A stretch of DNA of 64,000 nucleotides from an uncultured Holophagales bacterium (GTDB taxonomy: Bacteria > Acidobacteriota > Thermoanaerobaculia > Multivoradales > UBA5704), in the NCBI GenBank assembly GCA_963842525.1, contig CAWJGT010000009.1:1216001-1280000 (forward strand), read 5' to 3'. The position numbers were made by a program, and so were the translations under genes. Shown piece by piece: positions 39,926-64,000 of this stretch (position 1 is the stretch's first letter; every line of letters starts with the position of its first letter). The notes beneath the pieces are model-generated. The model had not been told where the DNA came from. It searched no databases and worked only from the letters and a program-made list of their open reading frames with translations.

Positions 39926-40687
39926 ATGCGAGTCGTCATCGTCACCGGTGGCGCTGCCGGAATCGGCCGCGCCACCGCCCGCCGCTTCGCCCGGGACGGC
40001 GCCCGGGTGGCGGTCTGGGACGTCAAGGCGGAGGACCCGGAGGCGCTCTGCGCCGAGCTGCGCGAGGCCGGCGGGGGGGCCGTGTTCCAGCAGGTCGACG
40101 TGACGGACGCGGCGGCCGTCGAAGCCGCGGTGGCCGCCGTGGTCGAGCGCTGGGGGCGGATCGACGTGCTGGTCAACAACGCCGGGATCGTGCGCGACGG
40201 CCAGCTCGTCAAGTGGAAGGACGGGCAGAAGATTTCCGAGATGAGCGAGCGGGACTTCGACGCCGTGGTCTCGGTCAACCTCAAGGGGGTTTTCCTCTGC
40301 ACACGCGCCGTGGCGCCGCACATGATCGCCGGCGGCGGCGGTGTGATTTTGAATGCCTCGTCGGTGGTCGGGCTCTACGGCAACTTCGGCCAGACCAACT
40401 ACGCTGCGACCAAGGCGGGTGTCGTCAACATGACCCGCACCTGGGCGCGCGAGCTGGGCCGGTACAAGATCCGGGTGAACGCCGTGGCCCCGGGGTTCAT
40501 CGCCACGGAGATGGTCCGGGCCATGCCTGAAAAGATCCTGAGCAACATGGTGGAGCACACGCCGATCGGCCGCATGGGGGAGCCGGAGGACATCGCCGAG
40601 GCCTATTTCTGGCTTGCCTCGGATGCCGCCGGCTTTGTCCATGGTACGGTCCTCTCCGTGGACGGCGGCCTGGTGATCGGTACTTGA
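39926..40687 (+). CDS. fabG: SDR oxidoreductase, 3-oxoacyl-ACP reductase-like
   Basis: TGGAAGIG, NNAG, GNFGQTNYAATK, VNAVAPGFI. Confidence 0.85.
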   Translation: MRVVIVTGGAAGIGRATARRFARDGARVAVWDVKAEDPEALCAELREAGGGAVFQQVDVTDAAAVEAAVAAVVERWGRIDVLVNNAGIVRDGQLVKWKDGQKISEMSERDFDAVVSVNLKGVFLCTRAVAPHMIAGGGGVILNASSVVGLYGNFGQTNYAATKAGVVNMTRTWARELGRYKIRVNAVAPGFIATEMVRAMPEKILSNMVEHTPIGRMGEPEDIAEAYFWLASDAAGFVHGTVLSVDGGLVIGT

Positions 40688-41502
40688 GAGCCTTCACTCC
40701 CCGTGCGCCGGGCCTTCTGACCCACCGCGTCACCGGCCAGGGGGAGCCGTTGCTGCTGCTCAACGGCGCGCTGATGAGCATCGCGGCGTGGCAGCCGGTG
40801 GTGCCCGCGCTCGAACCTCTCTTCAAGGTCGTGCGCTGCGACTTCCGCGGGCAGCTCTTCTCGCCGGGCGAGGCCCCGCCGGACTTCGGCGCGCATGTGG
40901 CGGACGTGCTCGCGGTGCTCGACCATCTCGGGCTCGACCGGGTGCACGTGGCCGGCGTCTCCTTCGGATCGCTCGTGGCGCTGCGGCTCGCGGCGGAGCA
41001 TCCCGGCCGGATCGCTTCCGTGGCCGCGATCACTTCGACCGAGCGCATCAAGGACGAGACCTGGCGCGACCTCGACGAGCTGCGGGACGCCTGCAGGGCG
41101 GCCGCCGCCGGCGGCGACCCCCGGCGCATCTTCGACCTCACCCTCCCGATGTACAGCGCCGGCTACAGGAGCACGCAAGGCGAGAGCCTGGCCCTGCAGC
41201 GGGATTGGATCCAAGCGCTGCCCGAGGTCTGGTTCCGGGGGATCGCGGCCCTTCTTGCCGCGGTCGAGGGGCTCGACATGCGGCCCGACCTGCCACGCAT
41301 CCAATGCCCGGTGCTGGTCGTGGCCGCGGAGGAGGACACCACGTTCCCCCTGGAGCACTCGCGGGCGCTGGCCGGGGCGATCTCCGGGGCTCGGCTCGTG
41401 GTGGTGCCCGGCGTGGGCCACGGGATGGTCATCGAAAAGCCGGACCGCCTCGGCGAGATCCTCGCGTCCTTCTTCGGCCCGCGCCGCAGGGTCCAGGTGT
41501 GA
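40684..41502 (+). CDS. Alpha/beta hydrolase
   Basis: DFRGQ, GVSFG nucleophile motif, GHG. Confidence 0.85.
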   Translation: MRAFTPRAPGLLTHRVTGQGEPLLLLNGALMSIAAWQPVVPALEPLFKVVRCDFRGQLFSPGEAPPDFGAHVADVLAVLDHLGLDRVHVAGVSFGSLVALRLAAEHPGRIASVAAITSTERIKDETWRDLDELRDACRAAAAGGDPRRIFDLTLPMYSAGYRSTQGESLALQRDWIQALPEVWFRGIAALLAAVEGLDMRPDLPRIQCPVLVVAAEEDTTFPLEHSRALAGAISGARLVVVPGVGHGMVIEKPDRLGEILASFFGPRRRVQV

Positions 41503-41563
41503 CGGCGGTCCCTCGTTGGATTATGATTCCGGTGACCGGAGCATCTACAACACTGCTGGAGGA

Positions 41564-42163
41564 GTGACGCGGTCGGGCACCCTCTGCAGCCGCTCCCGAC
41601 CTCCAAGGAGGCTGCGTGACGAGGTGGTTGAAGCGGGTCCGCGCTACCAACTGGTCATCCCGGACCTGCCCGGGCACGGCGAGAGCGCGCCGCGGGAAGG
41701 GCCTCTGACCCTCCGGGGCGAGCTCGACGGCCTCGACGCAGCCATCCGCAAGCTCGAGGAGGGCGAGCGCGTGATCCTGATCGGCAATGCCTTTGGCGGC
41801 TGGCTGTCGCTCATCTATGCTCGCGAGCATCCGGAGAGGGTCGAGCGCCTGGTCCTGGTGAACAGCGTCGGCCTCTCCTTCGACGCCGCAGGGCTCGATA
41901 CCCTGCCGGAAAACCGGGAGCAGGCGCAACGCATGGTGCAATCCCTCGGCGACCCGAACGCACGGCCGGCTCCGGGCTTCGTCCTCAAGCGCGAGGTGAC
42001 TCTGCGCCTGCTCAACGGCCTGCCCGGCGCGCGCCTGCACATCCTTCCGCGGTGCGGCCACCTGCCGCAGCAGCAATGCACGGACGCCTTTCTGAAGACC
42101 CTCCTGGAGATCCTCGGCTCTCCGCCGCCGCCCATCCCGGAGCCGTTCTCCCCGGTTCCTTGA
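41564..42163 (+). pseudogene. Degenerate, internally deleted paralogue of the downstream alpha/beta-fold gene
   Basis: Shares DLPGH..SAPR.G.LTLRGELDGL, YAREHPERVERLVLVNSVG and LPRCGHLPQQ with 42183..43124, but lacks the N-terminus and a central segment. Confidence 0.65.
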
Positions 42164-42182
42164 GCCCCTGTCGGTAGACCAC

Positions 42183-43124
42183 GTGACAAGGCCGGCGAAG
42201 CGGGCTCTCTGGGCGTTGGCGATCCTGGCCGTGGGCGCAGCCGTGGCGCTCGCAGCGGTCTACTACACCCGCCCGCTCGACGTCCTCTCCTGGTACCACC
42301 GGAGGGCCCTCTCGCGGGCCGGCCTGAAGGAGGAGTGGGTTCCAGCCCCTGGCGGGCAGCTCGCGGTCTGGACCGGCGGCCGGGGGAAGACCCTCGTCCT
42401 CGTCCACACCTTGAGCGACCACGCCGGCACCTGGCACGCGGTCGTCCCCGAGCTGCTCCAGCACTATCGTCTGCTGCTCCTCGATCTCCCCGGGCACCGC
42501 GACAGCGCGCCGCGGCAGGGGGAGCTGACCCTCCGTGGCGAGCTCGACGGCCTCGCCGCTGCGGTCCGGGAGCGCGGCGGGCAGGATCCCGTCGTCCTGG
42601 TGGGCAACGGGGTCGGAGGGTGGCTGGCTCTCAGCTACGCCCGGGAGCATCCGGAGAGGGTCGAGCGCCTGGTGCTGGTCAACAGCGTCGGGCTCTCGTT
42701 CGACCTCGGGGAGATCGCCCTCGTGCCCAGGGACAGGGAGGAGGCGCGGCGCTTCGTGGACGCCCTGTACGGTCCGGACACGCCGCCGACACCGGACTTC
42801 ATCCTGGACGATGTGGTCCGGAAGAGCCGGAGGAACCCCTTCACGCGGCTGCTGGCCAATCTGCGCAGCACCGACATGCTGGACGACCGCCTGACCGAGA
42901 TCCGCGTCCCCGCCGACCTGATCTGGGGCGAGGCGGACGGGATCGTGACGCGCGACGTGACACGGCGCCTGCTCGACGGCCTGCCGGGTGCCCACCTGCA
43001 CACCCTCCCGCGGTGTGGCCATCTCCCGCAGCAGGAATGTCCGGAGGCCTTCCTGAAGACCCTCCGGGACCTCCTCGGCTCGCCGCCGCCGGCGCTGCCC
43101 GCGCCGTCCTCATCTTTTCCTTGA
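42183..43124 (+). CDS. Exported alpha/beta hydrolase-fold protein
   Basis: Signal/TM N-terminus, DLPGH, GNGVGG at the nucleophile elbow, WGEAD, CGHLPQ. Confidence 0.82.
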   Translation: MTRPAKRALWALAILAVGAAVALAAVYYTRPLDVLSWYHRRALSRAGLKEEWVPAPGGQLAVWTGGRGKTLVLVHTLSDHAGTWHAVVPELLQHYRLLLLDLPGHRDSAPRQGELTLRGELDGLAAAVRERGGQDPVVLVGNGVGGWLALSYAREHPERVERLVLVNSVGLSFDLGEIALVPRDREEARRFVDALYGPDTPPTPDFILDDVVRKSRRNPFTRLLANLRSTDMLDDRLTEIRVPADLIWGEADGIVTRDVTRRLLDGLPGAHLHTLPRCGHLPQQECPEAFLKTLRDLLGSPPPALPAPSSSFP

Positions 43125-43181
43125 AGATCTGAAATAGATCGGCGGGCCGGATCACTCCTTTTAGAGAGGAGGGTTCCCACC

Positions 43182-43436
43182 GTGAGGCACTCGATCTCGA
43201 AAGACGTCCTCGACCGGTTCGCTCTCGGCCACGCCACTCCCCAGGAGAGGAAGGCCATTGCCGTCCACCTCCTCCACGGCTGTGACATCTGTGCCAAGAC
43301 GTTGCGGGCCGTGGCCTGGCCTGGGGCAGCGAAACGCGACCGGATCTCCGCCCGGGATGAACCCGAGAGCCCTCCGGGCCGTATGAAGAGAGGGAGCGGA
43401 CGAAATAGAACCTCGTCCGGCGTCACTCCAAGGTGA
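43182..43436 (+). CDS. Small protein with an H-x-C-x2-C (zf-HC2/anti-sigma-like) N-terminus
   Basis: HSISKDVLDRFALG...IAVHLLHGCDIC; GGAGG RBS. Confidence 0.5.
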   Translation: MRHSISKDVLDRFALGHATPQERKAIAVHLLHGCDICAKTLRAVAWPGAAKRDRISARDEPESPPGRMKRGSGRNRTSSGVTPR

Positions 43437-43484
43437 GGGGATGAGCGCGCCGTCCGCGTTCATCCTGGCAAGGAGGTAAGCACC

Positions 43485-43772
43485 GTGGCACAGCGAATTG
43501 CGGAACCCGGCCTGGATCGTTGGTCGGCAGGGTTTGCCCTGCGTGAGGAGAGCCCGATCATCGTCGCCCATCTCGCGGAGGGATGCCCATCCTGCACCGC
43601 GGGGCTCGAAGTGTTCCACCAGGTCGACGCGCCGGACCCGGCGCGCCAGGCCGTCCTCGAGCTCTTCGAGCGCGAGCTCCTCTCGACCCTCCAGGCGTCG
43701 GGCAGCTCCGTGCAGGCGCTCCACGCCGCCCTGGCGGGGATCGCGCTGAGCGGCGAAAAGCGCGCCGATTAG
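43485..43772 (+). CDS. Small protein with a zf-HC2-like motif
   Basis: IVAHLAEGCPSC; AAGGAGG RBS. Confidence 0.5.
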   Translation: MAQRIAEPGLDRWSAGFALREESPIIVAHLAEGCPSCTAGLEVFHQVDAPDPARQAVLELFERELLSTLQASGSSVQALHAALAGIALSGEKRAD

Positions 43773-43786
43773 ACCTACCCTCCTGT

Positions 43787-43830
43787 CCCTCTCCCTGCCG
43801 CCTCGCGCGAGGCAGGGAGAGGGGCTTTGT
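43787..43830 (+). terminator. 13-bp stem hairpin (terminator-like or REP-like)
   Basis: CCCTCTCCCTGCC...GGCAGGGAGAGGG followed by GCTTTGT. Confidence 0.5.
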
Positions 43831-43877
43831 CGGACATCCGCAGCAAAGTCAGCTCCTCTCGCTCCTCTCCCTTTGTG

Positions 43878-43906
43878 TTGACGCTACAGGTGTTTCCCTA
43901 TAGCAT
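43878..43906 (+). promoter_or_regulatory. Sigma70-type promoter upstream of the Thr/Cys-repeat gene
   Basis: TTGACG-N17-TAGCAT. Confidence 0.55.
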
Positions 43907-44073
43907 CTGAACAACACTTGAATAACGTGTTCTGAGCCGGATATGCAAATACGAGCACAAGCGTACCCGAGCACTCAGCCCTCGGTCCGTTCGCCTCCAT
44001 GACGGCTTTCCTCTTGGTGCTCCGATCCCAGCCCTCGACGAGACCAACCACCATTTCTCATAGGGGATGAATC

Positions 44074-45612
44074 GTGAATCCATTTACCCGGTTTGTGCAG
44101 GGCCCGCTGACTCAGGACCTGTGTAGCGGGGGGGCCGTCACGGCCGGCGGCCCCACAGTCTGCGGCGGCATCCGGACTTGCGGCGGCTGTCCTGGCGGCG
44201 AGATCACCGCCGCATCGCTTTGTGACATCGTGACCTGCGGCGGCCCCACAGCCTGTGGCGGCATCCGCACCTGCGGCCAGCTCACCTGCGGCGGGCCCAC
44301 GGAGTGCGGCATCGACACCTGTGGCCGGACCTGCCTCATCACCTGTGGTGGTCCGACCTGGTGCGGCGGCATTCAGACCTGCGGCCAGACGTGCGCCCAG
44401 ACCTGTCAACAGATCACTTGCGGCGGGCAGACCAACTGCGGCGGTGTGCGCACCTGTGGCGAGACCTGCCACCACCTCACCTGCGGCGGGCAGACGAACT
44501 GCGGCGGTGTCCAGACCTGCGGCCAGACCTGCATCCTGATCACCTGCGGCGGCGGGCAGACCAACTGCGGCGGTGTGCGCACTTGCGGCGAGACCTGCCA
44601 GATCACCTGTGGTGTGCCGACGCAGTGCGGTGGTGTGCGCACCTGTGGCGAGACCTGCCAGATCACCTGCGGTGGGCAGACGCAGTGCGGTGGCATCCAG
44701 ACCTGTGGCGAGACCTGCCAGAAGATCACCTGCGGCGGACCGACCGAGTGCGGTGGCATCGAGACCTGCGGCCACACCTGCTCTCCGGCCATCACCTGCG
44801 GCGGCGCGACCGAATGCGGCGGCATCCGGACCTGCGGCGAGACCTGCCAGAAGATCACCTGCGGCGGCGCGACCGAATGCGGTGGCATCCGGACCTGCGG
44901 CCAGACCTGCTCCCCCGAGATCACCTGCGGCGGGCCGACGGAGTGCGGTGGCATCCGGACCTGCGGCCAGACCTGCAATCAGATCACCTGTGGCGGACCG
45001 ACCCAATGCGGCGGCATCCAGACCTGCGGCCATACCTGCTTGCCCGCCATCACCTGCGGCGGACCGACGGAGTGCGGCGGCATCCGGACCTGCGGCCAGA
45101 CCTGCCACCAGATCACCTGTGGCGGACCGACCCAGTGCGGCGGCGTCGAGACCTGCGGCCATACCTGCTCGCCCATGATCACCTGCGGCGGGAAAACCGA
45201 ATGCGGCGGCATCCAGACCTGCGGTCAGACTTGCCAGATGATCACCTGTGGCGGGAAGACGGAGTGCGGCGGCATCGAGACCTGCGGCCGGACCTGCTCT
45301 CCCGCCATTACCTGTGGCGGGAAGACCGAGTGCGGTGGCATCCAGACCTGCGGCGAGACCTGCCAACCGATCACCTGCGGAGGGAAAACGCAGTGTGGCG
45401 GCATTGAGACGTGCGGGCCGGCCTGCCCTCCGGGCACCTTCGGGCCCGAGCATACCTGCGGCATCATCTGCCTCCCCGAGGAGAAGTCCGAAAAGGCCGG
45501 AGGCCCCATCACACAGGGTCCCATGACCCAATGTGCTGGCGTCCAGACCTGCGGCTGCCCCGGAGGTGGCAAAGAGGGCGGCTCGGGCGGCAAGGGGGAG
45601 AAGGGCGCGTGA
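44074..45612 (+). CDS. 512-aa Thr/Cys/Gly repeat protein; putative giant lanthipeptide precursor/substrate
   Basis: About 20 copies of (I/L/V)TCGGxTxCGG(I/V)xTCGxTC plus 1-3 linker residues. Copies differ at synonymous third positions (TGC/TGT, GGC/GGT). First gene of the kinase-lyase-LanC run. Confidence 0.85.
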   Translation: MNPFTRFVQGPLTQDLCSGGAVTAGGPTVCGGIRTCGGCPGGEITAASLCDIVTCGGPTACGGIRTCGQLTCGGPTECGIDTCGRTCLITCGGPTWCGGIQTCGQTCAQTCQQITCGGQTNCGGVRTCGETCHHLTCGGQTNCGGVQTCGQTCILITCGGGQTNCGGVRTCGETCQITCGVPTQCGGVRTCGETCQITCGGQTQCGGIQTCGETCQKITCGGPTECGGIETCGHTCSPAITCGGATECGGIRTCGETCQKITCGGATECGGIRTCGQTCSPEITCGGPTECGGIRTCGQTCNQITCGGPTQCGGIQTCGHTCLPAITCGGPTECGGIRTCGQTCHQITCGGPTQCGGVETCGHTCSPMITCGGKTECGGIQTCGQTCQMITCGGKTECGGIETCGRTCSPAITCGGKTECGGIQTCGETCQPITCGGKTQCGGIETCGPACPPGTFGPEHTCGIICLPEEKSEKAGGPITQGPMTQCAGVQTCGCPGGGKEGGSGGKGEKGA

Positions 45613-45631
45613 TGTAAGCTGACCTGCGATG

Positions 45632-45672
45632 CGGAGGCCCGGTCCCGCACTCTCTGGCGGGGCCGGGCTCCG
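45632..45672 (+). terminator. GC-rich intergenic stem-loop between the precursor and modification genes
   Basis: CGGAG(G)CCCGGTCCCGC-actctctg-GCGGGGCCGGGCTCCG, no U tail. Confidence 0.5.
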
Positions 45673-45701
45673 TCTCCGGGCCTTCGGACATCGAACGAGA
45701 C

Positions 45702-46800
45702 ATGCTGGTCCAACCCGAAAACGTCGTCCATTACCTGGCCGAGCGCCGGCTGCTGACCTTGCAGTCGGTGGTCGAAGGCGACTTCATGGTCTTCGATCAG
45801 TCGAGCCGGAACTACAACCTCAAGGTGCTGCGGCGGAAGTCCCCCGGCTTCTTCATCAAGCAGGTGCGCACCCGCACATCCGCCTACACCCTCACGCTGG
45901 AGCGGGAGGCGAAGTGTTACGAGATGGCGGCGCGCAACCCCCGCTTCGGCGCCATGGCCGCGCTCCTGCCCAGGTGCCACCACTGGGACGCGGCGAGGAC
46001 GATCCTCGTCCTCGAGATGCTTCCCGATGCCGAGAGCCTCTGGGAGCACCATCAGCGGCTGGGCCGGTTCCCGCGCGAGATCGCGGAGCCTCCAGGGAGA
46101 CAAGCTCGGCACCTACCACCGCCAGGCGGAGCTGTTCTTCCCCGCCCTGGAGGAGCTGCACCTGTTCGAGAAAAAGCTCCCCTGGATCCTCTCGATCCAC
46201 GAGACCCATCCGCAGTACCTGAGCCAGATGAGCCAGGGCAACGCCCAGCTCCTGCAGATCCTGCAGGACTATCCCGGGCTCACCCGCGCCCTCGACGCCC
46301 TCAAGCGCTCCTGGGTCTTCCGCGGGCTGATCCACGGCGACATCAAGTGGGAGAACCTCCTCCTGTACCGCGAGCGCCCGGAGGACCCGCCGGACATCCG
46401 GGTCATCGACTGGGAGATGGCCGACCTCGGCGACGAGTGCTGGGACACGGGGGCGATCTTCCAGGCCTACCTGAGCTTCTGGATCTTCATGCTGCCTCTC
46501 AGCCCCACCGTCAGCCTGGAGCAGGCATCGGAGATCTCGCCGTTCAAGGGCGAGGACATGCAGGTGGCCCTGGCCGCCTTCTGGACCCGCTATGCAGCGG
46601 CCCGCGGCTTCGGCCGCGCCACGTCGCGCCGCTACCTCGAACGGTGCATGGCCTGCGCCGCCGCGCGCATGGTCCAGACGGCCTACGAAGGGATCCAGCG
46701 GTCGCCCCAGATCACGCCCCAGGCGCTCTGCCAGCTCCAGATGAGCATGAACATCCTGCGCGATCCGGCCGCTGCCGTCGGCCAGATGGTGGGGCTGTGA
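45702..46800 (+). CDS. Aminoglycoside-phosphotransferase-like kinase (LanK-like); probable +1 error at ~46089
   Basis: SSRNYN, FFIKQ, LIHGDIKWENLL, VIDWEMA. Removing one C in GAGCCTCCAG joins ORFs 45702 and 46027. Confidence 0.85.
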
Positions 46801-46813
46801 GGAGGGCCGCACG

Positions 46814-47881
46814 TTGAGCACGATGGACTGGCAGGAGGCCCTCGACCAGGTCTTCGCGGCCATCCGCATCGAGTCGCCGCACGAGCTGACGTTCGCGGAG
46901 AGGAAATTCGCCGTACCGGCGGCGGCCGCCCCGGCCGGTAATGGCGCGGCGGGTGCGGCTGGTGCGGCGAAGGTGCCGCTGGTGGAGCTGCTCACCGACG
47001 TCCTCTACCGCTATGTCTACAGCCGGCCCTTCAAGCCGCCGCTTCCACCGCCTTCTCCGGACGGCCAGGAGCGCCAGGACTTCAGGCTCGACCCCGAGCT
47101 CAGCGCCGTCCTCTCCGCCGCCAACGCCTCGCGCGACCGCTGGGAGCACGGCTGGACCATCGGACAGATCCACTCCTCCGGCCAGATCACGGCGCAGCGC
47201 GGGAGCCGCTCGCGGTCGCTCTGGCCGGGCCAGTTCCTGAGCAAGGACGGTCCGGGTGCGCGCCCGCGGCCGGGGGCGCAGATCAGCATCTTCTATCCCC
47301 GCGAGTCCACGTCGCTCCAGCGCGGCTTCTACTACTGCTTCGGCGAGACCCCCGAGGACGAGAGCTTCACCCTCGGCCTGGTGCGGATCTACTGGCACGT
47401 CGGGCTCGCCGGGGCGCCGGAGCTGGTGCGGTCGCTCTCCGCGCGGCTCAACTTCTTCCAGGTGCCGTTCCGCATGAAGTGCTCGGTCATGCCCAGCCAG
47501 TACGACCGCACGGACGTGGCGGTCATCTACCTCGCCAAGCGCCTCTTCCCCTTCGTCGCCGACCTGCTCCAGGAGGTCTATCCCGCCGTGCGCCCGCACC
47601 TCGGGCCCGAGGTGCCGTTCTTCACCTGGCGCCTGGCCCCCGGGGTCGGCATCGCCGAGGACCCGGCCAACGGCGAGAGCTTCGGCCAGCACCGCTGCCG
47701 TCTCCTGGCGGAGTGCTGCTGGAGCTGCTTCCTGCGCGGCGATCAGGAAACGGCGTCGCGGCTGGCGGAGCTGCGCGTCGTGGCCGGCGCCCAGGGCACG
47801 GACCCGGAGCGCTTCCACCTCAACGCCGGCTCCCTGGACTGCTACGAGGCGTGCGCGACGGGGGAGGAATCATGGTCATGA
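46814..47881 (+). CDS. HopA1-family protein (LanY-like phospho-Ser/Thr lyase)
   Basis: GFYYCFG, VRIYWH, PFRMK, YDRTDVAVIY, LAPGVGIAEDP..GESFGQHRC. Confidence 0.85.
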   Translation: MSTMDWQEALDQVFAAIRIESPHELTFAERKFAVPAAAAPAGNGAAGAAGAAKVPLVELLTDVLYRYVYSRPFKPPLPPPSPDGQERQDFRLDPELSAVLSAANASRDRWEHGWTIGQIHSSGQITAQRGSRSRSLWPGQFLSKDGPGARPRPGAQISIFYPRESTSLQRGFYYCFGETPEDESFTLGLVRIYWHVGLAGAPELVRSLSARLNFFQVPFRMKCSVMPSQYDRTDVAVIYLAKRLFPFVADLLQEVYPAVRPHLGPEVPFFTWRLAPGVGIAEDPANGESFGQHRCRLLAECCWSCFLRGDQETASRLAELRVVAGAQGTDPERFHLNAGSLDCYEACATGEESWS

Positions 47882-49200
47882 CCGAGACGCCCGCGATGCC
47901 TGGCGGCGCTGCCAGCCCGCAGCCGGCCGCGGAGCACCGGGCGCTCTTCCTGGAGACCGCGGCTTCGCTGGGCGCGCGGATCTGCCGCGACGCGCTGTGG
48001 GGCGACGGCGTCTGCAACTGGATCGGCTTCGCCATGGAGAGCCTGGGCGGGCGCTGGCGGCACGCCCACCGCGCCTATGGCGGCGAGCTCTATGGGGGGA
48101 CGAGCGGCATCGCCCTCTTCCTCGCCCGCCTGCACGCGGTGACCGGCGAGCGCATGTTCAAACGCACCGCACTGGGGGCGATCCGCCATGCCCTGGAGCA
48201 CGGCGCAAAAGAGATCGTGCCGACGGCGCGCATCGGCGCCTACAGCGGTTGCACCGGCCTCGCCGACGCAGCTCTCCAGATCGCCGTCCTCCTGGAGGAC
48301 GAGTCGCTGCGGGCGCCGGCCCTGGCTCTCCTGGAGGAAGCGGCGAGCGGCGAGACCGGCCGCAACTTCGACCTGCTGGCGGGCTCTGCCGGAGCGATCC
48401 CGCTGCTGCTGCGGGCCCACGCCGGGCACGAAGGTCAACCGGGGCCGGCTTCCCTGCAAGAGGCGGCGGTGCGCCTGGGCGACGACCTCCTGGCCGCCGC
48501 GGCGCGTGCCGACGACCGCTGGTCCTGGGGAGAATTCGGCATGCCGGGGGCGAAGCAGAAGGACAACCTCCTCGGCTTCTCCCACGGCGCCGGCGGCATC
48601 GGCTGGGCCCTGCTGGAGCTCCACCAGGCCACCGGCGAGGCGCGGTTCCGCGAGGCCGGCGAAGGGGCGTTCCGCCACGAGCGGCACTGGTTCGACCCAG
48701 AGCACGGCAACTGGCCGGACCTGCGGGACCCCGAGGTCTCGGGCGCGGCGGCAGCCTCGGACGTCCCGGCCTTCATGACCGCCTGGTGCCACGGCGCGGC
48801 GGGCCTCGGCTTGTCCCGCCTGCGCGCCTGGGAGCTGTCCGGCGACGAGGAGTGCCGGCGCGAGGCCGAGGTGGCCGTCGACACCACCCTGGAGAACCTC
48901 CGCGGCGGCACGGAGATGAGCCAGACCAACGACTCTCTGTGCCACGGCAGGGGAGGGAACTGCGAGACGCTGATCTACGGCTCCCAGGTCCTGGGCCGTC
49001 CCGAATGGCTGCAACGGGCCGAGGAGATCGGCCTCCGGGAGATCGAGACCTGCGCCGCGCAGCGCCTGCCCTGGCCCTGCGGCACCTACGGCAGCGTCGA
49101 AGTGCCCGGCCTCCTGCTGGGCCTCGCCGGCATCGGCTATTTCTATCTCCGCCTCGCCGACCCGGCCGGCACGCCGTCGGTCCTGATCCCGCTGCCGTAA
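47872..49200 (+). CDS. lanC: Lanthionine synthetase C-like cyclase
   Basis: LYGGTSG, DLLAGSAG, GFSHGAGG, Zn-ligand motifs AWCHG and LCHG, GLLLGLAGIGY; overlaps the upstream gene end. Confidence 0.9.
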   Translation: MVMTETPAMPGGAASPQPAAEHRALFLETAASLGARICRDALWGDGVCNWIGFAMESLGGRWRHAHRAYGGELYGGTSGIALFLARLHAVTGERMFKRTALGAIRHALEHGAKEIVPTARIGAYSGCTGLADAALQIAVLLEDESLRAPALALLEEAASGETGRNFDLLAGSAGAIPLLLRAHAGHEGQPGPASLQEAAVRLGDDLLAAAARADDRWSWGEFGMPGAKQKDNLLGFSHGAGGIGWALLELHQATGEARFREAGEGAFRHERHWFDPEHGNWPDLRDPEVSGAAAASDVPAFMTAWCHGAAGLGLSRLRAWELSGDEECRREAEVAVDTTLENLRGGTEMSQTNDSLCHGRGGNCETLIYGSQVLGRPEWLQRAEEIGLREIETCAAQRLPWPCGTYGSVEVPGLLLGLAGIGYFYLRLADPAGTPSVLIPLP

Positions 49201-49692
49201 CCTTCTTCGTGCATTCCGTTCCAATCGTGCACAACGATTCGGAAGCCGGCGGCGACGATTCGCCCGCATCATCCTGAATCCCGTCTCCGTCTCGCCACTA
49301 TTCGGTCATTCTGAAGGAGCATTCGACCTGTGCTCCCTCACATCAGAGGTTGGCTGTAGGATTCAAGAGAATGTCTCCTGCACATAGGGATCTGAGTCTG
49401 CGCCATTCGCAAACATTCCTGCGCATTCGGGAGCTCCGATGGTGGCATTGGACCTGGGCTCGGCAGCATTGGGATCGGCCGGCGTGTCATTTGTGCCGTG
49501 GTCCCAATGATTGGGAGCTCCTGAAGAAAGATTCCGCTCCCAAAGCGTCGTGCACGGACGTGGCTCGGAATGTTTGGCCTTGCAGCCTGAATAACTACTC
49601 AGCTCGTCGGAAAAATCCGCTTTGCCAGACGAATGGCCGGGAATCCGAAACCGATGCTGCCAGGCACGAGACGAATGGTGCGTCAGGACGAG

Positions 49693-51381
49693 CTAACGCC
49701 TGCCCGCCGAGGTCCGGTTGCGGCTCGGCTTCGGCTTCTTCTTCCGGCGCCGCTTCGCCGCGAGCGCCGCGGTGGCTTCGTCACGGAGAGTCTGCGCCGG
49801 CTCGAAGTCCGGCGCTCCTTCGATCGCCTGCTCGGCGTGCGCCAGAGCGGCCTCAGTGTCTCCGAGATGAAAGAGGCAGAGCCCGACGTTGAACACGGTC
49901 GCCGGATTGGACCCGTAGAGAGCAACCGACTGGCGGAAGAAGGAGAGGGCGTCCTCGTAGCATTGGATTTCCGTGAGCAGCACGCCAAGGTGGAAGGGCA
50001 GGTCGAGCGACTCGCGGATCGGGAAATAGACCCTCCAGATCTCGTGGACCGCGTGGTAGACCTCGACACGGAGGAGGTCCGGTGCCGTGCCCACCTGCTT
50101 CATCAGCGCGGGGAAGCAGCCCAGGAGGATGTTCGAGTCCCAGCCCGACAGGCGCAGCCAAGTCAGGAGCTCTTCCAGAGGGAGCTCTTCGTACCCCCTC
50201 TCGACGCTCTTCTTGAGATCGAAAAAGTCGTCCGGCCCCAGGCGCTCGATCGCATCATCGAAGGCTAGACGGGTCTCCAACAGGCCGCCCGGGGGCGTGC
50301 CGAACAGGCCGGCGACGATGCTCAGGCTGGAGTACAGGTGCGTCGTGCTCAGGAAGTCGCCGCCCTGGTGGACGAACCACCGGCCGAAGGCGTGGTAATT
50401 GACCATCATCGAGAAGCTGCCATGGACCGCCAGGCCCGGCTCGCTACGGCCGGTCAGCAGCTCCTCGCGGCTGAAGCCCTTGTCGCCGGAGAGCAGCAGG
50501 AGCCGGTTGTCCGACAGCCGGGCGAGCTGGCGCGCGCCACGGATGGCAGCGCAGGGGAAGAGAAAGGTCGTGTCGTCCAGGCTCGCCACGTACTCCTGGA
50601 GGATTCGGTCGAGCTCCGGATCGCCATAATAGTCGGCCGGGGCGGGACACTCCTCCCAGGAGACCACGATCCGCCCGAGCATCCCGGAGTCTTCGAGATC
50701 GATCTCTCCCTCCGGCGCGGCGAGCGTCGCCAGGCATTCGAAAAACTTTCCATCGTGGACCGAGAAGACGTCCTGGGGGATGCCGTCGAAGACGTAGTTC
50801 GCCAGAACGATGAGCGGATTGCGCAGCGTTTGCGGCGAGAGGACTTCCCCCGAGCAGGTGAGGCGGATCTCGAAGTCCTCTCCGGCGTCGTAGCGCGCAA
50901 AGTCGAGCACTCCGGATTCGACGAACGACTGGAGGTCCGGATGATTGCGCAGGTGGTCGAGGTTGTTCTCCGTGAAGTCGGTCAGGACATAGCGGACCGG
51001 CACATGGCTCAGCGGCGACCGGCCGAGCAGGTCAAGGAAGCGGTTGAGGAACAGGTACCCGAAGCGGCCGGCCCCGCAGCCGAGCTCGACGATGTAGACC
51101 GGATGCCGGAGGTCGAGCGGCGCGAACGAGCCCCGCTGCGGAGACGTCGTCCCCGAGCAGTCACGCAGCCAGCCGAGGACCACCTTGGCGTAGGAGTCAG
51201 CGATCCAGCCGTTGCTGGTGATGTAGTGAGGGACCTGCCCCTCGGTCCAGGCCCGGACCCCCTGCACGTCGAAGAACTTCCGCTGGAGCTGCCAGAGGAG
51301 CGACTCGGACAGGCGCTTGCCGTGTTCGAGGACGTGACTGGCGACGACCGTCTCGGCGGGGCCGCTCTCCGGATCAGGCAT
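49693..51381 (-). CDS. SAM-dependent methyltransferase (MidA/NDUFAF7-like) with C-terminal TPR
   Basis: VPHYITSN, VELGCGAGRFG, ANYVFD, HGSFSMMVN; TPR-like C-terminus. Confidence 0.8.
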   Translation of the reverse strand: MPDPESGPAETVVASHVLEHGKRLSESLLWQLQRKFFDVQGVRAWTEGQVPHYITSNGWIADSYAKVVLGWLRDCSGTTSPQRGSFAPLDLRHPVYIVELGCGAGRFGYLFLNRFLDLLGRSPLSHVPVRYVLTDFTENNLDHLRNHPDLQSFVESGVLDFARYDAGEDFEIRLTCSGEVLSPQTLRNPLIVLANYVFDGIPQDVFSVHDGKFFECLATLAAPEGEIDLEDSGMLGRIVVSWEECPAPADYYGDPELDRILQEYVASLDDTTFLFPCAAIRGARQLARLSDNRLLLLSGDKGFSREELLTGRSEPGLAVHGSFSMMVNYHAFGRWFVHQGGDFLSTTHLYSSLSIVAGLFGTPPGGLLETRLAFDDAIERLGPDDFFDLKKSVERGYEELPLEELLTWLRLSGWDSNILLGCFPALMKQVGTAPDLLRVEVYHAVHEIWRVYFPIRESLDLPFHLGVLLTEIQCYEDALSFFRQSVALYGSNPATVFNVGLCLFHLGDTEAALAHAEQAIEGAPDFEPAQTLRDEATAALAAKRRRKKKPKPSRNRTSAGRR

Positions 51382-51785
51382 GGGCTCAGCGTCTACGAAG
51401 TCTCGTCGCAATGCCTAGGATGGCTTGCAGCGTAGCACAGCTTGGGCACGCACTCGTCGCGTGAGCGGAGGAGCGGCTCCCCGGGGCCCCAGACCGGACC
51501 GCTCCTCATCAGCGCGTACATCGTCTGTCAAAGAACCACGACGGCGATCGCCAGAGGCATTCAGCCTCACCCGAGATCGATCTCAGGTCACCTCGGATCG
51601 ATCGAGAAAGCCCTGGATCGATCCACGGTCCTCCGACAAGCATCCAGATCCGCTGCGATACGCAAAGGTCCGCCTGGGTCGATCGGCGCTCGCCCCGCAG
51701 GGGCATCCCGGGCTCCCTGGATCGATCCAGCCTCACCCGATCAGCATCCAGCGTCACCCGATAGCCATTTGCCGGTCGAGCCTGA

Positions 51786-52923: not shown

Positions 52924-52986
52924 CGACGGAACGGATGCCGGCCCCGGTTCATCCCGTTCCCTGGCAACGTTTCGAACACCCTGGAG

Positions 52987-55900
52987 CTACGCCGCCGGCC
53001 GCAGCTCCTCTTTCCGTTTCGGTGCCCGTTTCGGCAGCAGCCGCCGGAGCGCGTCCCTGATCCCCTCCACGCCGCGCAGGTCGTCGAAGATCGAATAAAA
53101 GACCGGCGTTGCCACCAGGGTCAGCAACAGCGAGAGGGTCTGGCCGCCGATCACGACCACGGCGATGGCGCGGCGCTCTTCGGCGCCCGGGCCGGTGCCG
53201 AGGGCGAGGGGCAGCATGCCGGCCACCAGTGCGAGGGTGGTCATCAGGATCGGCCGCAGGCGGTCGCGGTTGCCCTGGAGGATGGCCTGGCTGCGCTCCA
53301 TTCCCTGGGATCTGAGATTGTTCATGTGATCGATCTGCAGGATGGCGTTCTTCTTGACCACGCCGAAAAGGACCAGGATCCCCAAGGCTGAGTAGAGGTT
53401 CAGTGTGTTGCCGGTCGCCCAGAGGGAGACGAGGGCGAAGGGGATCGACAGCGGCAGCGAGAGAAGGATGGTCAGCGGGTGGATCAGGCTCTCGAACTGC
53501 GAGGCCAGGATCATGTACATGAAGGCGATCGAGAGCACCAGGGCCCAGACGCAGCTCACGGTAGGTCCGCGCGAGCTCCCGCCCGCGTCCGCCCACCGAG
53601 GTGGAATAGGCCGGGGGCAGGTTCATCCCGTCCACCGCCCTCTGGAGCGCAGCGAGCCGCTCGGCCAGGGCATAGCCGCGGTCCACGCCGCCGCGTACGC
53701 TCACCTGCCGCTGCCGGTCGAGCCGTTCGATCCGCGAGGCAATGGTGGACTCTTCGATCCGCACCAGGCTGTCGAGCCGGACGAGCCCGCCCCGTCCGCT
53801 CGGGACAGCGAGGCGCTGGATCGTCGCCGGGTCGTTGCGCGCTCCTTCAGCCAGCCGGATCGCGACGTCGTAGTCGTCGTTGACCCCGGCGTCGTAAAAC
53901 CGCGAGACGCGCGGGTCGCCGCCCACGAGGAGGCGGAGCGCCGTGGCGATGTCGGTCATCCGGACGTCCAGGTCCGCGGCGCGGGCACGGTCCACCTGAG
54001 CCCGCACCTCGGGCTTGTCGAGCTTGAGCGAGGTATCGATATCGACGAAACCTCCCATGTTGCGGGCGTTCTGGCGCAGCCGGTCGGCGTAGGCATAGAG
54101 CGTGTCGAGGTCGGGCCCGCGCAAGGCGAAATCCACTTCGAAGTTGCCGCCGCCGATGTCGAACCGCGTGGCGTTGCGCAGCACACAGCGCAGGTCCTTG
54201 TGCTTCGTGAGACGGCGCCGCACCTCGTCCATCACGTCGGCCTGCCTGTAGTTGCCGCGGAACGCCTCCAGGGGATCGAGCCGCAGCAGGCCGCGGGCGA
54301 GGCGCCCGAGCGAGAAGGTCCGCTCGCCGTGCGGGGTGAGCCGGACGAAGACGTTGCCCTGGTTGACCGCGCCGAGGAAAGAGGTGCCTGCGGTGGAGAG
54401 GACCATGCGCACGCCGCGGACCTGGCGCAGCTCGGCCTCGACCTCGCGCATGGCATCGTCCATGGAGGCGAGGCTCGTTCCCTCGGGCGCGTTGACGTTC
54501 ATTTCGAATTCGGATTCATCGACCTCGGCGGGCATGTACTCCACAGGGACGAGCCGGTAGAGCGGGACGGTGGCGGCCATCACGACCAGACAGGACACGG
54601 CCACGAGGCCCCGGTGGGCCACGGCCGCCGCCAGCAGCCGCTGGTAGGCGCTGTCGAGCCGGGCGTAGAAGCCGCGCCGGGAGCGCGCCTCTTCGCCGGG
54701 CGTCATGCGCAGCAGGCGCGCGCTCATCATCGGCGTCAGGGTGAAGGAGACGAGCAGGGAGATCAGCACTGCCGCCGCGGCCGTGATGCCGAACTGGAAG
54801 AGGAAGCGCCCGGCGACGCTCGACATGAAGGAGACGGGGATGAAGATCACCACCAGCGAGAAGGTCGTGGCCAGCACGGCGAAGCCGATCTCGGCCGTGG
54901 CCGCGCGCGCCGCCTCGAAGGTGGTCATCCGCTTTTCCTCGACGAAGCGGAAGACGTTTTCCAGCACCACGATGGCGTCGTCGATCACCACGCCGACCAT
55001 GAGCACCAGGGCCAGCATGGTGACGCTGTTGAGGGTGAAATCCAGGGCTTTCATGACGCCGAAGGTGGCGATGACCGAGGCCGGGATGGCCACGGCGGCG
55101 ATGACGGTCGAGCGCCAGCTCCGCATGAAGGCGAGCACCACCAGCGAGGCGAGGATGCTGCCCAGGATCAGGTGGAGGTCGATCTCGTGCAGGGCGGCAT
55201 AGATGTAGCGCGACTGGTCGCGGACGACCCGCAGCTCGATGTCCGCGGGGAGCTCGGTGCGGACCCGTTCCAGGGCCTCCTTGGCCCCCTCGATCACCTC
55301 GACCGTGTTCGCCCCCGACTGCCGCATCACTTCCAGGGTGACGGTCGGCACGCCGTCGAGCCGGACGACCGACCGCTGCTCCTTGGTGCCGTCCTCGGCG
55401 CGGCCGAGGTCGCGGATGCGGATCGGCTGGCCGCGGACCGTGCGGACCACAAGGTCGTCGAAGGCCCGCGGCTCGGTCAGCCGGCCCAGGGTGCGCACGG
55501 TCATTTCGCGCAGGGGGCCGGTGAGGTTGCCGCCGGGCACGCTGCTGTTCTGCCGCACGAGGGCGTCGCGCACCTCGGTGACGGGGATCTGGTAGGCCTC
55601 CAGACGGTCGGGCTCGAGCCAGACGTTGATCGCCCGCTCGAGGCCGCCGGCCAGGCGCACCTCGCCGACGCCCGACGCCCGCTCGACCTGTGGTTTTACG
55701 ACTTTGTCGGCGATCTCGGCGAGCTCCTCGATGGAGCGGGGGCCGGCGACCGCGACGATCAGGGCCGGCGTGACGTCGTTGTTGAACTTGGAGATCTCGG
55801 AAAGGAGAGCATTCTCGGGCAGGTCACCCGCCACGGAGGCCACCCGGTCGCGGACGTCCTCTGTCGCCGCGTCGATGTCGCGGTCGAGGCGGAAGGTGAT

Positions 55901-56179
55901 GAGCGTGAAGGAGACGCCCGCGGCGGAGATCGAGCGCAGCTCCTCGATCCCTGCGACGGTGTTGACCGCCTCCTCGATCTTCTGCGAGACCTCGGTCTCG
56001 ACCTCTTCAGGGGAGGCGCCCGGCAGGAAGATGCGGACGGTGACGGTGGGGAGGTCGACGGCGGGGAAGCGGTCGATGTCGAGCCCGGCATAGCTGGCCG
56101 CGCCGATCACCACCAGCCCAAGGATGAGCATGGCAGCGAAGACCGGCCGGCGGATGCAGATCTCGGCGAGCTTCTGCAC
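52987..56179 (-). CDS. AcrB/AcrD/AcrF family RND efflux permease (probable +1 error at ~53552)
   Basis: [35 protein letters not shown]; ORFs 56179 and 52987 join. Confidence 0.93.
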
Positions 56180-56320
56180 GGTCGTCCCCCCCTCGGCAGA
56201 GGGTGAGTGAAAAGTGAAACCTGTTTCATAAGTAAGGTGCTATAGGTCTATCAAAGCGAGCCGGGGGGACAGCGAAGCCCGGCTGCCTTCGTGCCTGCAC
56301 ATTTGTGCTATGCTGTTGTC

Positions 56321-63227: not shown

Positions 63228-63335
63228 GGTCAAAGAATCCCCTGAATCTGGCCCGCCATGCGTTCCTTATAGGGGAGCTTTGTCCCGGCGTCAAGATATT
63301 TGGGAGGGTGTTGCCGGGTGGGGTGGGATCGGGGA

Positions 63336-64000
63336 CTACGCCGCCGGCCGCAGCTCTTCCTTCTTCGGCGCCAGCCGGCGGAAGGCGTCCTTGAGGCCCG
63401 CCACCCCGCGCAGGTCTTCGAAGATCGAATAGAAGACCGGGGTGGCGACCAGGGTCAGCAGCAGCGAGAGGGTCTGGCCGCCGATGACCACCACGGCGAT
63501 GGCGCGGCGCTCCTCGGCGCCCGGGCCGGTGCCGAGGGCGAGCGGCATCATGCCGGCCACCAGCGCGAGGGTGGTCATCAGGATCGGCCGCAGCCGGTCC
63601 CGGTTGGCCTGGAGGATGGCGGCGCCGCGCTCCATCCCTTTCGACCGCAGGCCGTTCATGTGGTCGATCTGCAGGATGGCGTTCTTCTTGACCACGCCGA
63701 AGAGGACCAGGACGCCCAAAGCGGAATAGAGGTTCAGCGTGTTGCCGGTCACCCACAACGAGAAGAAGGCGAAGGGGACGGACAGGGGCAGCGAGATGAG
63801 GATGGTCAGCGGGTGGACCAGGCTCTCGAACTGCGAGGCCAGGATCATGTACATGAAGGCGATCGACAGGGTCAGGGCGAAGAGGAACTCGCGGTAGGTC
63901 CGCGCCAGCTCCCGGCCGCGCCCACCCACGGATGTGGAATAACCCGGCGGCAGGTCCATCTCGGTCACTGCCTGCTGGAGGGCCTCCAGCCGGTCGGCCA
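63336..64000 (-). CDS. RND efflux permease, C-terminal part (5'-partial); paralogue of 52987..56179
   Basis: [42 protein letters not shown]. Confidence 0.9.
   Translation of the reverse strand, partial: ADRLEALQQAVTEMDLPPGYSTSVGGRGRELARTYREFLFALTLSIAFMYMILASQFESLVHPLTILISLPLSVPFAFFSLWVTGNTLNLYSALGVLVLFGVVKKNAILQIDHMNGLRSKGMERGAAILQANRDRLRPILMTTLALVAGMMPLALGTGPGAEERRAIAVVVIGGQTLSLLLTLVATPVFYSIFEDLRGVAGLKDAFRRLAPKKEELRPAA

Follow-up and report, generated by a model that had tools for sequence, protein, structure and literature searches.

The DNA analyzed here (hereafter called the window) is a stretch of 64,000 nucleotides from an uncultured Holophagales bacterium. It contains four co-oriented and closely spaced genes: a gene encoding a repeat protein, followed by lanK, lanY, and lanC. 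The repeat gene (44074 to 45612, plus strand) begins with a GTG codon, has AGGGGA 8 nt 5' of the start, and encodes a putative LanA-like substrate of 512 amino acids (aa), including 86 Thr, 86 Cys, 122 Gly, and 8 Ser residues. Ahead of the repeat gene, a consensus scan found a site resembling a promoter, TTGACG-17-TAGCAT (43878 to 43906, plus strand); this is only a pattern match, with one hit against the 0.3 expected from shuffled sequences. The gap between the repeat gene and lanK is occupied by a GC-rich hairpin (45619 to 45687, plus strand; core stem, 45631 to 45672) with a minimum free energy of -54.7 kcal/mol and a z score of -2.1. No clean U tract follows this hairpin in the window. A strong hairpin was found after the repeat gene in 19/19 loci, with stem sequences that differ by clade. 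Two antisense open reading frames (ORFs) on the minus strand (43975 to 45531 and 44406 to 44978) were rejected as shadow frames of the GC-rich repeat. The plus-strand frame is the coding one, because its T/C/G codons change only synonymously, its start and the N-terminal box described below are conserved, and the four genes share one orientation.

The protein is made of about 19 near-identical Thr/Cys/Gly units of 21 or 22 aa each. The repeat array (44230 to 45429, plus strand; residues 53 to 452) is regular from 44385 to 45427, where a higher-order repeat of 129 nt overlies the units of 63 nt; in this part, Tandem Repeats Finder reported periods of 63 nt, 129 nt (8.2 copies of 43 aa), and 258 nt, and 21-aa units alternate with 22-aa units from residue 197 to residue 432. 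An alignment of 17 units gave the consensus I-T-C-G-G-x-T-x-C-G-G-[IV]-x-T-C-G-x-T-C, followed by a linker of 1 to 6 residues. The Thr positions were kept in 17/17, 17/17, 17/17, and 16/17 aligned units, and all four Cys positions were kept in 17/17; 15 of the 18 split units contained four Thr and four Cys. The variable positions are x7, x9, x14, and x18, together with the linker. Comparison of the units with each other gave a dN/dS ratio of 0.01 for the T/C/G codons (with a dS of 0.52) and of 1.3 for the four x codons, these values being rough Nei-Gojobori estimates for repeats that may evolve in concert. Along the chain, Thr and Cys alternate almost strictly, and the breaks in this order (four TT and four CC) all lie near the ends. 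Fifty-nine of the 86 Cys residues immediately follow a Thr, and 21 follow T-x. Contiguous Cys motifs are scarce (CC, 0; CxC, 1; CxxC, 1), with Cys residues mostly spaced by 4 to 6 residues.

Outside the array, the first Cys is residue 17, and no hydrophobic stretch was found at the N terminus (maximum 12-aa Kyte-Doolittle mean of 1.05 over the first 52 aa). The C-terminal part (45430 to 45609, plus strand) consists of one GPITQGPMTQCAGVQTCG module and a Gly/Lys/Glu tail; the homologues also have charged tails, with differing sequences. Four Ser residues lie in the array, all in CSPx linkers, and the other four are found in the N-terminal part and the tail. The linkers are short and no cleavage motif is conserved between the units. 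The initial annotation, made from the sequence of the window, had described equal numbers of Thr and Cys with four of each per unit, hypervariable positions, a 43-aa higher-order repeat of alternating units, about 16 residues before the first Cys, a charged Gly-rich tail, and neither a signal peptide nor a cleavage motif, all of which agree with our analysis; its statement that Ser is almost confined to linkers holds within the array. No family in Pfam or NCBIfam matched the repeat protein, the N-domain proteins described below, or proteins P0001 to P0004, and a search of the ESM Atlas gave no usable match to the repeat protein.

The gene lanK (45702 to 46800, plus strand) encodes an APH-type Ser/Thr kinase (PF01636, 31.4 bits; cutoff, 23.2). 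Its catalytic motif HGDxKxxN and a DWE motif are present and are invariant across 22 sequences, and its scores against the NCBIfam LxmK equivalog model (24.6 and 32.5 bits) are far under the cutoff of 315. In the assembly of the window, a single additional C at 46089 puts the two parts of lanK in different frames, which could mean that the system is dead in this strain. The insertion was seen in comparison with 4/4 close relatives, LanK is intact in 18/18 relatives, and the extra base is absent from 6/6 contigs covering the site in four soil runs, one of these contigs being about 99% identical to the window over 151 nt. Three other LanC-like genes of the same genome are also broken up across frames, a hint that assembly indel errors may be the origin of the split genes. 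The next gene, lanY (46814 to 47881, plus strand), has a TTG start with GAGGAGG upstream and encodes a HopA1-type phosphoSer/phosphoThr lyase (PF17914, 112.6 bits; cutoff, 22.7), the sole HopA1 family match in the genome. The best PDB matches of LanK and LanY were chains A and B, respectively, of a single entry, 9dk1 (for LanY, 9dk1_B, "Lyase," E value of 2.8e-10). The last gene, lanC (47872 to 49200, plus strand), encodes a zinc-type lanthionine cyclase (PF05147, 184 bits; LanM C-terminal model TIGR03897, E value of 3e-82), whose motifs SHG, WCHG, and CHG (zinc ligands Cys, Cys, and His; acid-base) align with those of LicM2. Its start is the ATG at either 47872 or 47878, the latter overlapping the lanY stop codon as ATGA; the enzyme genes are thus linked by ATGA and ribosome-binding-site overlaps.

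According to PMC12291118 and PMC11186320, class Vb lanthipeptide systems are defined by LanK (PF01636), LanY (PF17914), and LanC, and mSmoA is the sole class Vb product described; in PMC9486802, a LanK/LanY pair is reported to carry out dehydration in vitro. Class Va, as presented in PMC11186320, forms rings without LanC and leaves some dehydrobutyrine (Dhb) free. As in class Vb so described, the window has a standalone APH-type PF01636 kinase, a HopA1-type PF17914 lyase, and a LanC with zinc ligands side by side and adjoining a substrate gene, and a Pfam search (E value of ≤0.01) of the 11 ORFs in 39926 to 51411 and of the ORFs common to the loci found neither a LanD decarboxylase nor LanX, the class Va markers. 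The substrate differs: instead of a short peptide made up of a leader and a single core, it is a 512-aa protein with about 19 tandem units behind a 16-residue box. The acidobacterial host and the low score of the kinase against the LxmK model also set the window apart from the class Vb reference.

The four-gene arrangement is conserved. The order repeat gene-lanK-lanY-lanC was found in 18 of 21 acidobacterial loci, and the other three are on contigs ending in or before LanK; six loci extracted earlier gave figures identical to those of six of the 21 and were counted once. An orthologous LanY was present in 7 of 101 genomes of relatives, and these were exactly the seven with a real precursor match. 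Weak precursor matches in two other genomes (G002 and G011) were discarded as spurious, with 19 to 28% identity, no LanY orthologue, and, at locus L019, no lan genes. When the ORFs flanking the loci were clustered, nothing was conserved outside the four genes and no shared protease or transporter was found; the loci of relatives lack the three hydrolase genes that the window carries upstream. A large Cys/Thr-rich repeat protein was also encoded upstream of LanK in 4/4 Verrucomicrobiia/Longimicrobium loci and in 4/5 further acidobacterial loci.

Among close relatives, the precursor is only 45 to 49% identical, compared to 76 to 93% for the enzymes, and both the number and the sequence of the units change fast. 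The conservation of Thr in the homologues (78%) is similar to that of Cys (84%), compared to 7% for Glu and 4% for Lys, and Ser is the commonest replacement of Thr (60 of 243 Thr substitutions); such counts come from kin that are not independent and from flexible repeat alignments. Variable Thr next to conserved Cys, the pattern that the initial annotation had named as speaking against its reading, was therefore not what we found. The Thr/Cys ratio was 1.01 ± 0.07 (r = 0.97; n = 19 homologues). Covariation was detected, in that units with a Thr at position 18 tend to be followed by units with a Cys at position 3 (87/6 versus 50/73; Fisher P = 4e-17). It was not used for ring assignment, because unit types are not all in the same register and the related sequences are not independent.

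We then considered how such a protein could be recognized. The repeat protein starts with MNPFTRFVQGPLTQ; a class-I-type leader of type MKKLKLDLDALEVDSF is absent, and no NCBIfam leader model matches it. Its first 16 residues form a box, MNPFTRFVQGPLTQDL (44074 to 44121, plus strand), with the pattern FxxGP[LI]TQ, which is conserved in 18/18 full-length homologues, G10, P11, T13, and Q14 being invariant in all of them. In distant relatives, the repeats are separated from the N-domain by a related box, F-x-x-G-x-[LIV]-x-x-D-[YFL]. The box is thus a putative minimal leader or recognition element, and the earlier remark that no leader was evident is right for a classical leader and needs amendment for the N terminus as a whole. 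A model of the complex between LanK of a relative and residues 1 to 50 of that relative's own precursor scored 0.83, compared to 0.00 for the best of three controls. In the calibration, 116 of 157 solved complexes attained this level, as did 2 of 215 mismatched pairs, counts that hold only roughly since our own alignments were used. The runs had at least 40% of their contacts in common, with a partner pLDDT of at least 48. In the model, which covers LanK alone and may owe its score to solved kinase-lyase entries already known to the predictor, precursor residues 1 to 13 and 16 to 18 touch a conserved surface of LanK. Recognition through the C-terminal tail or the repeat itself, as suggested in the initial annotation, is not supported by these results, which point to the N-terminal box.

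Several other proteins resemble the repeat protein in part. The module T-x-C-G-G-[IV]-x-T-C-G, often followed by x-T/G-C, also occurs in peptides P0005, P0007, P0013, P0046, P0048, and L065 1048-1566, which, unlike the window protein, are 74 to 178 aa long with 2 to 6 modules and carry a classical class-I-type leader, MKKLKLDLDALEVDSF...GTVHG. P0007 gave a weak match to the pinensin leader model (E value of 0.048), below its cutoff. In one Longimicrobium genome, peptides with the leader MKKLKLDLDALEVDSF adjoin LanB and LanC, not LanK/LanY. The leader-bearing P0007 form was found in none of 400 sampled genomes of the phylum, where only the window's own repeats matched. To our knowledge, none of these leader-bearing peptides has been characterized. 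A second group, in Longimicrobium, Verrucomicrobiia, and other Thermoanaerobaculia (L041 to L044 and L071 to L074), comprises Cys/Thr-rich repeat proteins of 321 to 709 aa encoded directly upstream of LanK-LanY-LanC, with the F-x-x-G-x-[LIV]-x-x-D-[YFL] box immediately before the repeats. They differ from the window protein in having a beta-rich N-terminal domain of ~85 aa (N-domain), other repeat sequences, and more Thr plus Ser than Cys. The N-domain is absent from the window's genome and is a separate ORF immediately upstream in L025 and L029. A Foldseek search of the PDB with its model gave no match at an E value of ≤0.001 (one weak SH3-like row had a probability of 0.77), and only unnamed clusters were found in the ESM Atlas. 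Short Thr/Cys-rich repeats are also known from the beetle beta-helical antifreeze protein, a secreted, disulfide-bonded protein with 12-aa TCT repeats and a regular beta-helix; the AlphaFold2 model of the window protein is also a solenoid. The likeness to CrpA/CrpC of Methanococcus voltae is one of concept: in PMC13692751, RiPP-type thioether cross-links are described on a large Cys-rich protein with the enzyme gene adjoining, although there the enzyme is a radical SAM protein, the links are ranthionine, the host is an archaeon, and the sequence is unrelated to that of the window protein. A literature search of journals open without subscription returned no paper on such giant repeat substrates.

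From its sequence and gene context, the 512-aa repeat protein is probably the substrate of the three-protein lanthionine synthetase encoded just downstream. Because its gene directly precedes those of a thioether-ring kinase, lyase, and cyclase, it is probably a protein-sized relative of the lanthipeptides, which are small antibiotics stapled by rings. The earlier suggestion that its Thr residues are dehydrated and pair with Cys receives good, if indirect, support from the adjoining enzymes, the Cys-like conservation of Thr, the Thr/Cys ratio near 1, the conserved gene order, the co-occurrence with LanY, and the presence of the module behind class-I-type leaders. LanK would bind the N-terminal box (FVQGPLTQ) and phosphorylate the Thr residues of the repeats again and again, LanY would remove the phosphate to give Dhb, and the zinc enzyme LanC would join Cys thiols to Dhb to give methyllanthionine rings. 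Since Thr and Cys alternate 1:1 and most Cys residues come directly after a Thr, each Cys must pair with a nonadjacent Dhb. Two topologies may be envisaged, either a chain of small rings in which Cys is joined to the next downstream Thr (i+3 to i+5) or overlapping rings in which Dhb is joined to the second downstream Cys (i+5 to i+8). A single chain could hold as many as about 80 rings.

What becomes of the modified chain can be viewed in two ways. The precursor could be cut between units after modification to yield about 20 different four-ring lanthipeptides of 21 to 22 aa, i.e., a combinatorial library. The four hypervariable positions per unit and the linker, with a dN/dS of about 1.3, the presence of only a few modules in the relatives behind classical leaders, and the fast evolution of the precursor compared to the enzymes are consistent with such a library. 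However, no conserved cleavage motif is found in the short linkers, no protease or transporter gene is common to the loci, and the window's upstream hydrolases are not shared by relatives, so that we consider this outcome unlikely. As the conserved core comes without a protease, a transporter, or a cleavage motif, a protein-sized product is favored, namely an uncleaved, covalently stapled rod or solenoid.

It could also be argued that the repeat protein stays unmodified and acts as a structural or metal-binding protein rich in Cys, either a beta-solenoid with a Cys ladder or a metallothionein-like protein, and that its position next to the lan genes has no functional meaning. AlphaFold2 folded the unmodified chain confidently from a single sequence as a beta-solenoid (pTM, 0.73; pLDDT, 85 to 93 over residues 170 to 440), so a functional unmodified fold is conceivable, and another organism has secreted proteins whose repeats are similar (ITCGGATSCGGIQTCGSTC), although none of LanK, LanY, and LanC is encoded within 8 kb of them. 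This idea is difficult to reconcile with the conserved gene order, the strict co-occurrence with LanY, and the Cys-like conservation of Thr, for which Ser is the commonest substitute, and a Foldseek search of the PDB with the solenoid model gave no match at an E value of ≤0.001. Since the N terminus is not signal-like, any disulfides would need to be made in the cytoplasm. Metallothioneins are small and have dense CC, CxC, and CxxC clusters; the size of the protein and its scarcity of such motifs fit poorly with the metallothionein-like alternative raised in the initial annotation. An unmodified protein is thus quite improbable. Even less probable is dehydration with few or no rings (with class Va, as described in PMC11186320, as a precedent) or conversion of Cys/Thr to azoles, because all complete loci have kept a LanC whose zinc site is intact and the azole (TOMM) reading was rejected for want of a cyclodehydratase, reductase, or decarboxylase family among the 11 ORFs in 39926 to 51411.

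Returning to the protein-sized, stapled product, we tentatively propose, as a conjecture with somewhat less than even prospects, a "lanthi-protein" of ~50 kDa with roughly 19 solenoid turns and as many as four methyllanthionine bridges to staple each turn, made by LanK/LanY/LanC reading a box of 13 to 18 residues. Instead of being a small antibiotic, it would remain uncleaved and serve as a scaffold or material of extreme stability. In soil Acidobacteriota, Gemmatimonadota, and Verrucomicrobiota, the enzyme trio would normally be paired with related giant substrates that have an added N-terminal domain. The peptides in which lanthionine chemistry is known have about 20 to 40 residues. If our interpretation is true, conserved tandem-repeat substrates of 250 to 600 residues carry this chemistry to protein size, which raises the questions of how one kinase/lyase/cyclase set handles about 80 sites with a minimal leader and which ring topology a strictly alternating Thr/Cys chain adopts. 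The N-terminal box is a candidate compact recognition tag, and, together with the 21-aa modular scaffold and its four freely variable positions, it could serve the engineering of stapled repeat proteins. For the bacteria themselves, the finding would raise the question of what job such a protein does in soil.

The gene for the repeat protein lies at 44074-45612 on the forward strand, with a GTG start, an AGGGGA sequence 8 nt upstream, and a product of 512 aa containing 122 Gly, 86 Thr, and 86 Cys residues and just 8 Ser. Alignment of 17 units gave the consensus I-T-C-G-G-x-T-x-C-G-G-[IV]-x-T-C-G-x-T-C (x, variable position), with a short linker after it. Every one of the four Cys positions was kept in 17/17 units, and the four Thr positions were kept in 17/17, 17/17, 17/17, and 16/17. 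Units of 21 and 22 aa alternate from residue 197 onward, and in 44385-45427, Tandem Repeats Finder detected period lengths of 63, 129, and 258 nt. Read in sequence order, Thr and Cys residues alternate, and the breaks (four TT and four CC) are all close to the chain ends. Cys comes right after Thr 59 times and after T-x 21 times; CC, CxC, and CxxC occur 0, 1, and 1 times, respectively. Between units, nearly all change at the Thr, Cys, and Gly codons was synonymous (dS of 0.52 and dN of 0.004), and dN/dS was about 1.3 at the four x positions, these values being rough estimates with concerted evolution of the repeats possible. Because codon change at Thr, Cys, and Gly was almost only synonymous, the repeat pattern is under protein-level selection in the forward frame. 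The description of Thr/Cys units in the initial annotation was thus borne out by the unit alignment, the residue counts, and the codon changes. Long antisense ORFs over the gene were rejected as shadow frames.

The homologous repeat proteins, 280 to 604 aa long, have a much higher rate of evolution than the enzymes; in one example, the repeat protein was 45 to 49% identical to that of the window where the enzymes were 76 to 93% identical. Their Thr/Cys ratio was 1.01 ± 0.07 (r = 0.97, n = 19). Local alignments to 18 homologues showed conservation levels of 84% for Cys, 78% for Thr, and 83% for Gly, versus 7% for Glu, 9% for Arg, and 4% for Lys, figures to be read with the flexibility of repeat alignments and the kinship of the genomes in mind. 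Thr was therefore not lost where Cys was kept, the pattern that the initial annotation had named as speaking against its reading; the most frequent replacement of Thr was Ser (60/243 substitutions).

Three genes on the same strand directly follow the repeat gene: lanK (45702-46800), an APH-type kinase gene (PF01636, 31.4 bits) whose product weakly resembles the class V kinase LxmK; lanY (46814-47881), for a HopA1-family protein (PF17914, 112.6 bits); and lanC (starting at 47872 or 47878 and ending at 49200), for a LanC-like cyclase (PF05147, 184 bits) whose nearest relative is a LanM cyclase domain. The ribosome-binding site of lanY is overlapped by the lanK stop, and the lanY stop and one candidate lanC start overlap as ATGA. 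LanC retains the SHG, WCHG, and CHG motifs when aligned with LicM2. The best solved relatives share entry 9dk1, where the lyase matched chain B ("Lyase") and the kinase of a relative matched chain A ("Kinase"). Class V lanthipeptide pathways are defined in the literature by a standalone LanK (PF01636) plus LanY (PF17914), and subgroup Vb additionally has LanC, with mSmoA as its sole described member (PMC12291118, PMC11186320); dehydration in vitro by a kinase/lyase pair of the class V type has also been reported (PMC9486802). Since LanK, LanY, and LanC are all present, the enzyme set, judged by sequence, fits class Vb, and the trio would join that known class as a new member.

In the window, lanK is split over two frames by one extra C at 46089, as seen in an alignment with 4 close relatives. 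The kinase was uninterrupted (358 to 371 aa) in 18/18 relatives examined, and the extra base was missing from 6/6 site-covering contigs from 4 soil metagenome runs, one of which, of 151 nt, had a single other difference from the window lanK. The LANC_like family of the same organism's genome comprises 14 pieces, or about 11 genes, on contigs C1, C3, C9, C23, and C25; three of these genes each appear as two neighboring pieces that read in different frames, a hint of assembly indel errors. For the extra base in lanK, a fault in the assembly or a mutation private to the strain is more likely than an old pseudogene. Rich as it is in lanthionine cyclase genes, this genome has a single HopA1-type lyase.

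A search with the lyase alignment collected 25 loci: 21 from Thermoanaerobaculia or other Acidobacteriota, 1 from Verrucomicrobiia, and 3 from Longimicrobium and relatives. Six loci fetched by genome gave the same picture, were apparently the same records, and were left out of the count. The order repeat protein-kinase-lyase-cyclase was found in 18/21 acidobacterial loci, and the remaining 3 contigs stop in or just before the kinase. A lyase orthologue above 600 bits was present in 7/101 related genomes, exactly the 7 with a real repeat-protein match. A strong GC-rich hairpin separates the repeat gene and the kinase gene in 19/19 loci, with stem sequences differing by clade; a hairpin after the structural gene is a common arrangement in lantibiotic clusters. 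When the flanking ORFs were clustered, no additional gene was common to many loci.

Not found in the relatives' loci were a TPR protein encoded downstream in the window; three tandem alpha/beta-hydrolase paralogues (40684-43124, +), of which the middle one (about 41560-42163) has an open frame missing the N-terminal region and an internal stretch; and two small ORFs just upstream of the repeat gene (43182-43436, 84 aa, and 43485-43772, 95 aa; +), each with an H-x3-C-x2-C motif and no Pfam or NCBIfam match. Elsewhere in the window, a hybrid NRPS/PKS gene (2-8603, +) is already open at the window start; its product has KR, thioesterase, condensation, and carrier domains and two adenylation domains. 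The next ORF, in an overlapping frame, encodes a carrier-thioesterase protein. Located about 36 kb upstream of the repeat gene, these ORFs belong to a separate biosynthetic cluster. The reverse strand carries an AcrB-type RND transporter gene (52952-56239) and, further on, a separate C-terminal AcrB-like fragment beside a RhuM-family gene (the two together at 62187-63266 and 63339-63998); the fragment may represent an interrupted second transporter.

The initial annotation had seen no evident leader. This view was not supported: a box, [FY]-x-x-G-P-[LI]-T-Q, begins 5 to 6 residues after the start in 18/18 full-length homologues, with G10, P11, T13, and Q14 invariant. In more distant LanK-LanY-LanC clusters, the kinase gene is likewise preceded by one for a large Cys/Thr-rich repeat protein, 321 to 709 aa long (4/4 Verrucomicrobiia/Longimicrobium loci and 4/5 further acidobacterial loci). 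At the N terminus of these proteins is a beta-rich domain (about 85 aa), and a related box, F-x-x-G-x-[LIV]-x-x-D-[YFL], comes after it, immediately ahead of the repeats. The domain, with the motif string FVxRLVPDP...G[YF]xG...RLY...DILH...LW, is fused to the repeat proteins in loci L041-L044 and L071-L074 and is a separate ORF in loci L025 (3521-3844) and L029 (3622-3942), ending where the box-first precursor starts. It is absent from the window's genome and matched no Pfam or NCBIfam family; its AlphaFold2 model (pLDDT of about 80 over residues 40-101) gave only a weak SH3-like match.

A complex modeled from the kinase of a relative and the first 50 residues of that relative's precursor scored 0.83, versus 0.00 for the best of 3 controls. 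This mark was reached by 116/157 solved complexes and 2/215 mismatched pairs, a calibration that is only rough given that both partners were entered as author-supplied alignments. The runs had at least 40% of contacts in common, with a partner pLDDT of at least 48. The modeled contacts join precursor residues 1-13 and 16-18 to kinase residues 257-287 and 339-362, the latter stretch containing the invariant columns Q346, M349, and N350. The predicted complex supports binding of the box to the kinase, and the model may lean on solved kinase-lyase entries. A leader-kinase contact proposed for CaoA/CaoK (PMC9486802) parallels the contact modeled here.

Homology and gene context suggest that the repeat protein is probably the substrate of LanK, LanY, and LanC. 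The kinase would dock on the N-terminal box and phosphorylate Thr, the lyase would eliminate the phosphate to give dehydrobutyrine (Dhb), and the zinc cyclase would add Cys to Dhb. A Thr and the Cys right after it cannot close a ring with each other in the usual direction. Each Cys would thus have to pair with a nonadjacent Dhb, forming either successive small rings or rings that overlap; a covariation count for the topology was confounded by differing registers. The main alternative, a precursor cleaved into multiple cores, appears unlikely: no protease, transporter, or cleavage motif was conserved among the loci, and we therefore lean toward an uncleaved, protein-sized product. Less probable still is an unmodified structural or metal-binding protein. 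In its favor, AlphaFold2 run on the single sequence folded the unmodified chain into a beta-solenoid (pLDDT of 85 to 93 over residues 170-440; pTM of 0.73) with no significant PDB match. This model leaves the structural reading alive and is also compatible with a stapled solenoid. Dehydration only, or some other chemistry, is very improbable.

A search of 1.84 billion representatives gave just 50 matches at an E value of ≤1e-3 and 0 at ≤1e-30. Several were short proteins (74 to 178 aa) in which 2 to 6 copies of the same T-x-C-G-G-[IV]-x-T-C-G module come after a classical leader (MKKLKLDLDALEVDSF...GTVHG); one of them gave a weak, below-cutoff match to the pinensin leader model. The Longimicrobium genome G489 had 15 matches to one such leader-bearing peptide, one of them consisting of the leader and three ATQCGGVQTCGDGC modules. 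Peptides of this leader type form a large precursor family there, part of it adjoining LanB and LanC genes. At least 15 ORFs of this genome (loci L065-L070) have the leader M-K-K-L-x-L-x-L-D-A-L-x-V-x-S-F and highly diverse Cys-rich cores, several in tandem. Because the module stands behind classical leaders, and such leader peptides lie beside LanB and LanC genes, the module by itself appears to be a lanthipeptide core. However, two tandem genes whose secreted products combine ITCGGATSCGGIQTCGSTC-type repeats with a globular C-terminal part (locus L045, 5967-7535 and 7968-9305, +; an unrelated organism, 51% GC) count against this, since no LanK, LanY, or LanC gene was found within 8 kb.

We found no description of such a substrate in the literature, and it differs from all the described lanthipeptide precursors we found there. 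The nearest concept is CrpA, a Cys-rich protein with radical-SAM cross-links (PMC13692751). What is new lies in the putative substrate: 250 to 600 aa, a minimal leader, and tandem modules with four free positions, in a family conserved across soil Acidobacteriota with domain-bearing cousins in two other phyla.
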